A stretch of DNA of 64,000 nt from a virus: the IMG/VR virus record IMGVR_UViG_3300023174_000065; one strand, written 5' to 3'. Below, one piece after another: positions 40,975-56,925 of the stretch. Position 1 is the stretch's first letter; each line of letters starts with the position of its first letter. A program made the translations under genes and the position numbers. The notes below the pieces were generated by a model that was not told where the DNA came from, did no database searches, and was given only the letters and a program-made list of their open reading frames with translations.

Positions 40975-41874
40975 TTAACTGAAATATTGTATTTGGTCAA
41001 CAAATCCATTGGGAAATTTGTTATTATTTGATCCAATAGGATTTCCAGTAGGATAATAATTTACACCAAAAGCATCATTCTTTGGTTTGATTTTAAATCT
41101 TACCGCAGTGTATGCTCCTGTCCATGAAAGTTGAATTATTCCATGTGCCGCTGTGCTAGATATATAATTTGTCACGGTAAATGCCTGTGCATTTGCCTGG
41201 CCAGCGGGACTAGGATTACTATCAATCGTTGCCTCTACTGTAATTTCTCCTGCAAAACTTGCTAGTGTAACAGCGGCGGTCGATGTGGTAGAATTGTAGG
41301 TAGAACTGATTTTAGGTCTAAGCCACTCGCTTACAAAAATGTATCCCATGCTGTTAGGAGTTCTATCATATGCTTTGCCTGTTTCTAATTTGTCAATATC
41401 AACTGTTTGAATAGGATATCCTATTGCAAATCCATCTTCTACTATTTCAATGTCACCGGTAATTTCATAATATGTATTTGCATACGCAGGAGTGAATGTT
41501 CCATCTCCATTATCTTTCTTTACCAAAAACTTGTAACTAGCAGCTTGTAAATTAATTGTGTCCAGTGGATTGAATGTAACAACCGCTAGTCCTTTGGTAG
41601 ATGTAGTCACTCCGTTGTCTATGACTGATAGTTTTTTGCTGAAAACCAACTCTCTGCCAGTAGTGTCAATAAGGTCTACATAATAATTAGTAGTAGTAGA
41701 AAGAAACACAGGCTTTTGATCAGAATTTTTGAACTGTATCTGTACTGAATCTTTAAATCCTTTTTGAATTTTGATCTTTCTTTGATACATAACCTTATAA
41801 ATTCCTCTGGTTTGATTGGTATCGAATATTACATCGATCTTATTTGGATATAAATAAACTGGCAACTTGTTCAT
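40975..41874 (-). CDS. Late-expressed, probably structural Ig-like protein
   Basis: TATAAATA (41882-41889, - strand) lies 7 nt before the ATG. Beta-rich sequence. Confidence 0.55.
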   Translation of the reverse strand: MNKLPVYLYPNKIDVIFDTNQTRGIYKVMYQRKIKIQKGFKDSVQIQFKNSDQKPVFLSTTTNYYVDLIDTTGRELVFSKKLSVIDNGVTTSTKGLAVVTFNPLDTINLQAASYKFLVKKDNGDGTFTPAYANTYYEITGDIEIVEDGFAIGYPIQTVDIDKLETGKAYDRTPNSMGYIFVSEWLRPKISSTYNSTTSTAAVTLASFAGEITVEATIDSNPSPAGQANAQAFTVTNYISSTAAHGIIQLSWTGAYTAVRFKIKPKNDAFGVNYYPTGNPIGSNNNKFPNGFVDQIQYFS

Positions 41875-41894
41875 GACGTTGTATTTATAAAAAT

Positions 41895-53914: not shown

Positions 53915-53932
53915 AGAGATATTTATACAAGA

Positions 53933-56229
<2,297 letters not shown>

Positions 56230-56234
56230 GTTGA

Positions 56235-56258
56235 TATTTATACAAATGCAAACTCGTC
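56235..56258 (-). promoter_or_regulatory. Late promoter TATAAATA (56235-56242) overlapped by a putative operator GACGAGTTTGCATTTGTA (56241-56258)
   Basis: The box is 5 nt before ATG 56229. The upstream 18-mer encodes DEFAFV, like the C-extein. Confidence 0.7.
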
Positions 56259-56877
56259 ATGTGATTATTTGATTCGCATTGTATGTTCTTGAATATAAAT
56301 CGACAAGTGAAATATCTTCTTCGACCAGTGTATTTTTATTGCGTATTCTTACAGTAGTGTCTCCATCTAAACAGTAGAGTAATGATAGTGACATACCTCG
56401 GCCAGTCGTTGGCGTAGTAGTTTGCGCTACAATTCTTGAACCGTTGTCGAACTCAATGCTTTGTTTGTTGTAACTAGTAACGCCTGCTCTAATACTATCT
56501 GGACATAGTTCATATGCATATCTAATCCTAGACATGATTTCCATAGCACCGGTGTGTTTATGCGCTGCTACTAGAATTGTACTATTGTCGATAAACATTG
56601 CATACCATAGAAGATATCCGGCAGCAGTGGTGGTCTTGCCTGTTTGTCTAGGCAACATATTTACATTGAATCTATTATCGTGATAACTGTCTATTAATCT
56701 TTTTTGATATTCAAATGCCGTATAGGACATTTTGCCTTTTGTTGGATGTTGGATATGAAAGTAATTATCAAGAAAATAATGAGGATCTTCAAGGCATTTT
56801 GCAAATTCTATTAAGTCTTGTTCGGTAAATACCTGTTTTTTGTGCGCTGTTTTAATTAATGAATTGTCTGCTGCCAT
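56257..56877 (-). CDS. gp17: Large terminase N-terminal ATPase fragment followed by split-intein N half (IntN, 38 aa)
   Basis: Walker A LPRQTGKTT, IEFDNGSRI, then GRGMSLSLLY followed by CLDGDTTVRI. Confidence 0.92.
   Translation of the reverse strand: MAADNSLIKTAHKKQVFTEQDLIEFAKCLEDPHYFLDNYFHIQHPTKGKMSYTAFEYQKRLIDSYHDNRFNVNMLPRQTGKTTTAAGYLLWYAMFIDNSTILVAAHKHTGAMEIMSRIRYAYELCPDSIRAGVTSYNKQSIEFDNGSRIVAQTTTPTTGRGMSLSLLYCLDGDTTVRIRNKNTLVEEDISLVDLYSRTYNANQIIT
56260..56373 (-). mobile_element. Split intein IntN
   Basis: Block A CLDGDT.V...ISLVDLY, then stop. Confidence 0.9.
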
Positions 56878-56890
56878 ATAAGTATCTGAT

Positions 56891-56925
56891 AAAGAGAGTA
56901 GATCACATGCGATCTACTCTCCTTT
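56891..56925 (-). terminator. Hairpin (probable terminator) just upstream of the terminase start
   Basis: 11-bp perfect stem GAGAGTAGATC/GATCTACTCTC with short T-runs. Confidence 0.6.

Follow-up and report, generated by a model that had tools for sequence, protein, structure and literature searches.

Organization of the fractured terminase locus

In the window, the 64,000-nt stretch of viral DNA that was analysed (IMG/VR record IMGVR_UViG_3300023174_000065), the large-terminase gene was fractured on the minus strand into three ORFs: TerL-N plus IntN, an endonuclease, and IntC plus TerL-C. The features of the locus are as follows.

56877-56257, minus strand: first ORF (TerL N-extein plus IntN)
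56374-56877, minus strand: terL N-extein, 168 aa, Walker A motif PRQTGKTT, C terminus ...GRGMSLSLLY (ORF list, Pfam Terminase_6N, phrog_5989)
56260-56373, minus strand: IntN, 38 aa, CLDGDTTVRIRNK...NQIIT (CLDGDT...NQIIT), the short N-half of an atypically split intein
56257-56259, minus strand: IntN stop codon TGA; the ORF ends ...ATC ACA TGA, and the G and A of the stop are bases 1-2 of the 18-mer
56241-56258, minus strand: candidate operator and homing-site mimic, the 18-mer GACGAGTTTGCATTTGTA, GAC GAG TTT GCA TTT GTA, DEFAFV in a virtual frame, untranslated
56235-56242, minus strand: TATAAATA, T4 late-promoter consensus, sharing the last two bases of the copy
55294-56229, minus strand: gene for a free-standing putative homing endonuclease, 311 aa; residues 1-140, conserved family-wide, putative DNA binding; residues 181-309, Vsr/EDxHD-like PD-(D/E)XK nuclease
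55327-53933, minus strand: third ORF (IntC plus TerL C-extein)
54998-55327, minus strand: IntC, 110 aa, ending ...CFITKN, weak Intein_splicing match
54977-54997, minus strand: start of the resident C-extein, TGC (Cys+1) and then GAC GAA TTT GCC TTT GTG = GACGAATTTGCCTTTGTG (DEFAFV)
53933-54976, minus strand: remainder of the terL C-extein, with the rest of the ATPase domain and the RNaseH-like nuclease domain

The N-half of the intein closes the first ORF, the C-half opens the last ORF, and the endonuclease gene lies between them, which is the arrangement of fractured genes; the first 34 nt of IntC overlap the 3' end of the endonuclease gene. The lengths of IntN (38 aa) and IntC (110 aa), the residues Cys1 and Cys+1, and the large-terminase host are those of a split TerL intein, and IntN homologues were present in all related loci. 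Splicing of ...SLLY/CLDGDT...IIT(stop) with M...FITKN/CDEFAFV would rebuild the Walker B strand LLYCDEFAFV, which is the exact sequence found in 74 intein-less relatives. The resident DEFAFV contains the Walker B Asp and the catalytic Glu. Upstream of the locus, a strong terminator-like hairpin (11 pairs plus a T run) was observed at 56894-56921, between the preceding gene and terL-N, so that terL-N seems to be the first gene of a transcription unit.

The endonuclease family combines one N-terminal domain with two nuclease domains

Sequence searches with the endonuclease gave no Pfam match and no PDB match, and a weak match to a PHROG of unknown function. The first-pass annotation had called the enzyme a PD-(D/E)XK nuclease, and an AlphaFold model of the 311-aa protein (pLDDT 80.6) supports this call at the level of the fold, the predicted C-terminal domain being Vsr/I-Bth0305I-like. 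The best structural match of residues 181-309 was I-Bth0305I (3r3p_A; Z 8.4, rmsd 3.2, 94 of 97 residues), followed by 1vsr with Z 8.1, and Vsr was the top Foldseek match (E 7e-3); Z values of this middling size denote a match at the level of fold. Residues D204, E207, D212, D222, E233, Q235, and H240 were invariant among 13 homologues. Modelled alone, the N-terminal domain (pLDDT 76.6) reached a best Z of 3.8 against 48,161 chains, and no recognisable DNA-binding fold emerged from that comparison; residues 40-83 weakly resemble the helix-turn-helix domains of sigma region 4 (Z 3.0-3.6).

Across the family, which comprises 330 clusters at 90% identity and 184 representatives at 50% identity, a single shared N-terminal domain of ~140 aa is joined to either of two unrelated C-terminal nuclease domains. 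Type A, to which the window enzyme belongs, carries the motif ...IEYQSSAWH..., and type B carries ...GAYHIDH... and is HNH-like. The nuclease type is strictly linked to the end of IntC, type A with ...TKN (Asn) and type B with ...SHQ (Gln). Two loci, L132 and L134, have identical IntN, copy, and gene start and differ in their nuclease and IntC modules, which points to recombination inside the conserved domain; from this comparison, one IntN seems to serve two IntC subtypes. Since the N-terminal domain stays constant while the nuclease is swapped, it is likely the sequence-reading part of the enzyme. The host context of the family was terL, interrupted at the same site, in every context examined.

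Many family proteins are ~400-430 aa long, as in forms extended at the N terminus. In one protein (P0154, 766 aa), the endonuclease N-domain is fused to IntC/TerL-C, either through a frameshifted call or as a real fusion. At L160:1350-3400, two family endonucleases (382 aa, Vsr-like, and then 299 aa) lie in tandem directly upstream of IntC/terL-C, and an IntN half was not located within that locus. At L159:1160-3244, the IntC plus TerL-C gene encodes 694 aa, with an apparent second, contiguous intein downstream in the ATPase domain (Pfam Intein_splicing).

A near-copy of the Walker B coding sequence precedes the endonuclease gene

The first-pass annotation had described an 18-mer directly after the IntN coding end, overlapping the TATAAATA motif of the endonuclease gene, and the coordinates agree with this layout. 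The remaining details of that description also hold: the copy (56258-56241) and the resident C-extein (54994-54977) are identical at 15/18 positions, the three differences all fall on third positions of the D-E-F-A-F-V frame, and the copy is out of frame with IntN (+1). When both strands of the whole window were searched at three or fewer mismatches, only these two sites were found, where 0.11 would be expected by chance. They lie on the same strand, 1.26 kb apart, within one mobile element, and their similarity ends at the limits of the 18-mer. The copy starts at approximately extein position +1, with the endonuclease gene 30 nt downstream. Together with the real site, it makes up a pair of direct repeats that enclose [promoter-endonuclease-IntC]. 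The 5-nt spacer TCAAC separates TATAAATA from the endonuclease ATG (56229). In seven unique relatives, TGT, which usually encodes Cys+1 in intein-less alleles, stands directly before the copy and extends it to 21 nt. The exact 21-mer GAGTTTGCATTTGTATAAATA was present in 7 IMG/VR contigs; on each of them, a diverged IntN end lay on one side and the ATG of a diverged endonuclease gene on the other.

The copy is retained at most loci and is lost together with the promoter motif

Related loci were collected by means of the endonuclease protein alone, which avoids selection on the motif. Alignment of the conserved N-terminal 140 aa yielded 61 viral loci, and protein look-ups yielded six more. After removal of duplicates, the element was found at the same place in 42/46 unique loci, and GTATAAATA was invariant across the aligned loci. 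The first-pass annotation had held that loss of the 18-mer beside a functional endonuclease gene would tell against an operator. Such loss was observed in a minority of five loci, namely one with an intact short-form enzyme (L129) and four with N-terminally extended enzymes (L097, L143, L155, and L156). All five loci without TATAAATA also lacked the copy, and this joint loss fits a replaceable promoter-operator unit rather than a refutation.

The extended enzymes carry an additional ~100-200 aa, with neither promoter nor copy upstream. In L097 and L143, no gap separates the IntN stop from the endonuclease ATG, which comes right after the stop or overlaps it, and the extended forms may be expressed by translational coupling instead. 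At L145:2501-2836, the endonuclease gene is truncated to 112 aa, the promoter reads GATAAATA, and the copy carries the sole change seen at a pseudo-second position (GCA>GGG); these changes fit relaxed constraint after loss of the enzyme. In a near-identical phage (L002/L012 and L003/L013), an 845-nt deletion between two TGCATT microhomologies, window 55400-56244, has removed the endonuclease gene. The deletion leaves the first 14 nt of the copy, then the last 36 endonuclease codons, and then IntC. Contigs from three freshwater runs, each of a different study, contained the deletion joint 55399>56245, and in two of these runs it was found alongside fragments carrying the endonuclease gene.

An untranslated sequence changes as if it were read in codons

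The copy is untranslated in 36/41 unique loci. Its frame relative to IntN varies among these 41 loci over all three frames: the IntN stop TGA overlaps the copy in 26; another 5 have a TAA and then the copy in the +2 frame; 5 more keep it in the IntN frame with a stop upstream of it; and only 5 read it as an in-frame IntN tail (...xDEFAFV, then stop). The loci in which IntN runs through the copy in frame are L094, L135, L136, L139-L141, and L145, where the N-fragment would end ...(S/T/G/N/D)DEF(A/G)FV; in L136 and L145, the IntN tail is longer by two residues (HK or DK).

The variation of the copy nevertheless followed codon positions. Over 24 haplotypes, the summed entropies were 7.0, 2.2, and 0.25 at pseudo-codon positions 3, 1, and 2, respectively, and the wobble set (positions 3, 6, 9, 12, 15, and 18) ranked first by entropy among 18,564 six-position sets. 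On a parsimony tree built from the flanking IntN and endonuclease sequence, 52 changes were inferred in the copy, with 42 at pseudo-third positions, 10 at pseudo-first positions, and 0 at pseudo-second positions (p=3e-12). Two-fold sites mostly underwent the synonymous transition, and the four-fold Ala site showed all four bases (p=0.002). No change was inferred at seven interior positions, the invariant set being A2, A5, T8, T13, T14, G16, and T17. Position 4 departed from the coding pattern with approximately four G>A changes (virtual GAG to AAG), which turn the virtual Glu into Lys in ~10 loci.

Among the twelve type-A loci, conservation of the copy was 0.96, 1.00, and 0.72 at pseudo-codon positions 1, 2, and 3, which is higher than in any flanking coding region, and the spacer between TATAAATA and the ATG scored 0.5. 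In a 24-nt sliding-window scan, the window on the motif ranked 162 of 1980, a low rank that reflects the variable wobble positions; the signal is a periodic pattern and not blanket conservation. It is documented that homing endonucleases recognise their targets through the codon positions under constraint, with weight on the first two (PMC3239194). The conserved place of the copy, combined with a constraint that mirrors that of the target, speaks against a relic in decay and favours a target mimic that is under selection and attached to the promoter. The best reading of these alignments is that the 18-mer is a selected cis-element and not debris.

The copy resembles intein-less terL alleles

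The first-pass annotation had proposed that the copy preserves the target present in intein-less terminase alleles. Upon alignment with 44 unique intein-less alleles, the window copy matched at 15.1/18 positions on average and the resident C-extein at 14.25/18, an outcome in favour of that proposal. The copy was the better match to 31 alleles and the poorer match to 2, with 11 ties, and its best match was 17/18. The Glu codon was GAG in 40/44 intein-less alleles and in 16/45 resident C-exteins beside an intein (p=5e-8), and the resident C-exteins showed parallel shifts from TTT to TTC and from TGT to TGC. The copy mostly retained the intein-less states (GAG, TTT, and often TGT). The systematic recoding of resident C-exteins is therefore GAG>GAA, TTT>TTC, and TGT>TGC, and does not concern the codons that had been named for it (GCC, GTG, and CCC). 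Because GAA also occurs in some copies, the recoding may be hitch-hiking of donor flanks rather than immunity.

At the wobble sites, no correlation was detected between the copy and its own resident C-extein (permutation p=0.18), which makes ongoing conversion between the two repeats unlikely. In a clade whose TerL has DELAFV (TTG), the copy codon is CTG or GTG, and in a clade with DEFSYV (AGC) it is ACT. The sequences of these two diverged clades are suggestive only, pointing to a copy that may co-vary with its target.

The copy abuts a start-associated late-promoter motif

Of the 12 TATAAATA sites in the window, 9 are in the sense orientation and no more than 120 nt ahead of a gene start (p=2e-10). 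This association marks TATAAATA as a genuine signal of gene starts, and its sequence is that of the T4 late-promoter consensus. The other sites in the window share at most TTTG upstream. No sigma-70-type promoter was found at the copy site. Likewise, no hairpin was found in the leader: five spans around the site folded no better than shuffled sequence (z +0.1 to +1.4), and the consensus fold of 17 loci reached -0.76 kcal/mol with no compensatory pair.

The motif stands 5-7 nt before the ATG of three genes, the portal gene (53920-53927, at a distance of 5 nt), the ORF at 40975-41874 (41882-41889), and the endonuclease gene (56235-56242). These three genes are without a Shine-Dalgarno sequence, and many other window genes have AAGGAG. 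If TATAAATA is the promoter, the three mRNAs would be leaderless or nearly so.

Proposed autorepression by a target mimic and competing explanations

The explanation that we regard as probable, though far from assured, is that the copy is an operator of the I-TevI type, which mimics the homing site and serves autorepression; it is reached by analogy with the T4 enzyme. The 18-mer would imitate the DNA that encodes the Walker B strand (C)DEFAFV of an uninterrupted terL. This DNA is the expected homing site of the endonuclease and is probably attacked in the terL of rival phages. The conserved N-terminal domain of ~140 aa would bind the mimic, and the bound enzyme would block RNA polymerase at TATAAATA and so hold down its own production, in the manner of I-TevI in the T4 td intron. 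Efficient cutting of the mimic would be avoided, since the sequences beside it, those of the IntN 3' end and of the promoter, are unlike the flanks of the real target. Three links of this scheme are inferred: the endonuclease is what binds the copy, its binding represses transcription, and TATAAATA is active as a promoter.

Several observations sit less easily with autorepression by a target mimic. The drift at position 4 speaks against a strict mimic, since the real target cannot change there. The copy spans the C-extein side only, and were it to make up the whole recognition site, binding to the resident C-extein would be expected too. Moreover, L129 and the N-terminally extended forms do without the element, which is hence dispensable. 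The lack of a recognisable DNA-binding fold in the N-domain model (best Z 3.8) and the junction-like start of the copy also count against it.

The endonuclease could instead bind the mimic for another purpose, such as tethering the enzyme to the genome that encodes it, flagging the edge of the cassette in repair, or activating or timing transcription. All evidence for selection on a target mimic applies equally to such functions, and only the overlap with TATAAATA and the joint loss point specifically to repression. We nevertheless consider them unlikely, as none has a known precedent, and the invariant abutment GTA/TAAATA together with the I-TevI precedent makes promoter occlusion the simplest function and autorepression the most economical.

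In a second alternative, no protein reads the copy; short-patch conversion in the course of homing or co-infection would re-template it time and again from real terL alleles. Its substitution pattern is exactly that of real alleles, and it carries their intein-less states where the resident C-extein carries element-linked ones. However, the copy is uncorrelated with the resident C-extein, just 18-21 nt of homology are available, and a recipient 3' end annealing on the copy would give products without IntN, which we infer to be inviable. Re-templating also leaves the placement at the promoter, the joint loss, and the drift of position 4 to A unexplained. Only re-templating and reading by a protein whose specificity was shaped by a coding target account for drift confined to the synonymous positions of the target; a decaying relic, a plain promoter, an RNA structure, and a translated peptide each fall short on one point or more. 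The fixed fusion to the promoter, the joint loss, the missing correlation, and the short homology favour reading by a protein, and we hold re-templating to be quite improbable. Separately, a "landing pad" role, in which the recipient 3' end primes on the copy, was rejected by reasoning, as the product would be without IntN.

The copy might also be a neutral relic, a target duplication made when the cassette was inserted, that is kept only for its service as the IntN stop and as the upstream portion of the promoter. Its start at about extein +1, the TGT before it in seven unique loci, the in-frame tail in 5 loci, the direct repeats that bracket the cassette, and the TGA within TGAY that serves as the IntN stop in 26/41 loci all suit such an origin. 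Yet constraint on a stop and a promoter alone would not give zero changes at seven interior positions next to free third positions, and the other TATAAATA sites of the window have no comparable upstream sequence beyond TTTG. A neutral relic is thus very unlikely as an account of the present copy. The start near +1 and the in-frame tails do have the look of a recombination junction, and the copy may have originated, at least, as a duplication of the target when the cassette entered the intein.

Two further roles are given hardly any credence. An RNA role, in which a 5'-UTR hairpin would contain the late promoter and, in read-through transcripts, mask the start codon, has precedent in 15/16 endonuclease 5' UTRs, 10 of them with TATAAATA (Dassa et al., PMC2677866), but is contradicted here by folding no better than shuffled and by the empty 17-locus consensus fold. 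Translation of the copy, for example as a DEFAFV tail added to IntN by frameshifting or readthrough, would agree with the coding-like substitutions, the 5/41 loci in which the tail is truly in frame, and the weak stop context of TGA followed by C, but it is opposed by the occurrence of all three frames, by a TAA or TGA 3-11 nt upstream of the copy, in its frame or +2, in 10 loci, by the absence of a shared slippery codon, and by the change of the virtual Glu to Lys in ~10 loci.

The candidate recognition sequence of 18-21 bp, with position weights, is G-A-n-R-A-n-T-T-n-G-C-n-T-T-n-G-T-A, and it would serve an abundant, unnamed endonuclease family that is without a Pfam model. The endonuclease-deleted, nuclease-exchanged, and promoter-less natural forms offer material on the life cycle of the element. 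The copy is in addition a non-coding element with codon periodicity, which could mislead gene finders and dN/dS-type screens. As a tentative and rather doubtful generalization, free-standing endonucleases of split inteins may generally carry a homing-site mimic fused to their promoter, an "address label" that drifts only where it is unread, and its position at extein +1 may record the entry of the cassette. If so, the natural operator variants would provide, ready-made, a specificity profile for an uncharacterised DNA-binding domain. The label may also record cleavage of, or recombination at, a target copy, which would offer a concrete route to fractured genes.

Comparison with known systems

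The layout of the fractured terminase and the atypically split TerL inteins are already known (PMC2677866, PMC11766414), as is autorepression through a mimic for T4 intron endonucleases. Fractured genes include a single terminase locus, from Lake Gatun, with an unusually long C-part (Dassa et al. 2009, PMC2677866). The window locus shares with fractured genes the TATAAATA motif in the endonuclease leader and the overlap of the endonuclease 3' end with IntC, 34 nt here and 6-69 nt there. That study describes leader RNA hairpins and promoter motifs but not a copy of the extein target, and a leader hairpin that sequesters the start is also described for Aeh1 mobE (PMC2677866); at our locus, by contrast, no hairpin was found. 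The AceL-TerL and GOS-TerL inteins, as summarised in PMC11766414, have an IntN of 25-37 aa, an IntC of 104-115 aa, a TerL host, and Cys+1. The window intein is likened to them by layout, through its TerL host, short IntN, long IntC, and Cys+1; those studies deal with protein splicing only.

I-Bth0305I, the prototype of the EDxHD (Vsr-like) homing endonucleases, belongs to a recA group I intron and has as its recognition sequence a pseudopalindrome with the cut at the centre; its specificity is reported to follow the first two codon positions of its target (PMC3239194). Like the window enzyme, it has an N-terminal DNA-binding region (putative here) followed by a C-terminal nuclease. The two differ in that they share no detectable sequence similarity, and no operator is described for I-Bth0305I.

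Loizos et al. are said to have put forward, in 1994, a model of endonuclease-ORF invasion in which the sequence flanking the ORF within the splicing element resembles the exon homing site. In collaborative homing, a splicing element that has no endonuclease occupies a site to which a free-standing endonuclease is already adapted (PMC2988022). The resemblance between the endonuclease-flanking sequence and the extein homing site is common to these models and our locus. The models, however, cover the origin of such a look-alike and not its maintenance, whereas the substitution pattern suggests that the one described here is under continuing selection.

In the literature, no description was found of a homing-site mimic for an intein-associated free-standing endonuclease. 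The closest counterpart is the I-TevI operator of the T4 td intron, which is identical to the homing site at 15/20 positions, overlaps a late promoter, and has a proven role in autorepression (PMC2988022). In both cases, a homing-site-like sequence (15/20 identity there, 15/18 here) stands just upstream of the endonuclease ORF and overlaps a TATAAATA late-promoter sequence, and the enzyme is modular with a separate DNA-binding part (putative here). I-TevI, on the other hand, is a GIY-YIG enzyme of a group I intron, and the present enzyme comes from an unnamed family, whose nuclease domains are Vsr-like or HNH-like, and accompanies a split intein in a protein-coding gene. Furthermore, the mimic here spans only the downstream side of the insertion site, autorepression is proposed here by analogy, and the codon-like drift of the operator over 40 loci had no counterpart that we found in the T4 literature. 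If autorepression by a target mimic does operate at these loci, self-limitation by mimicry of the homing site would recur as a design among phage homing endonucleases and not be a peculiarity of T4 introns, holding here in a different enzyme family and with an intein in place of an intron.
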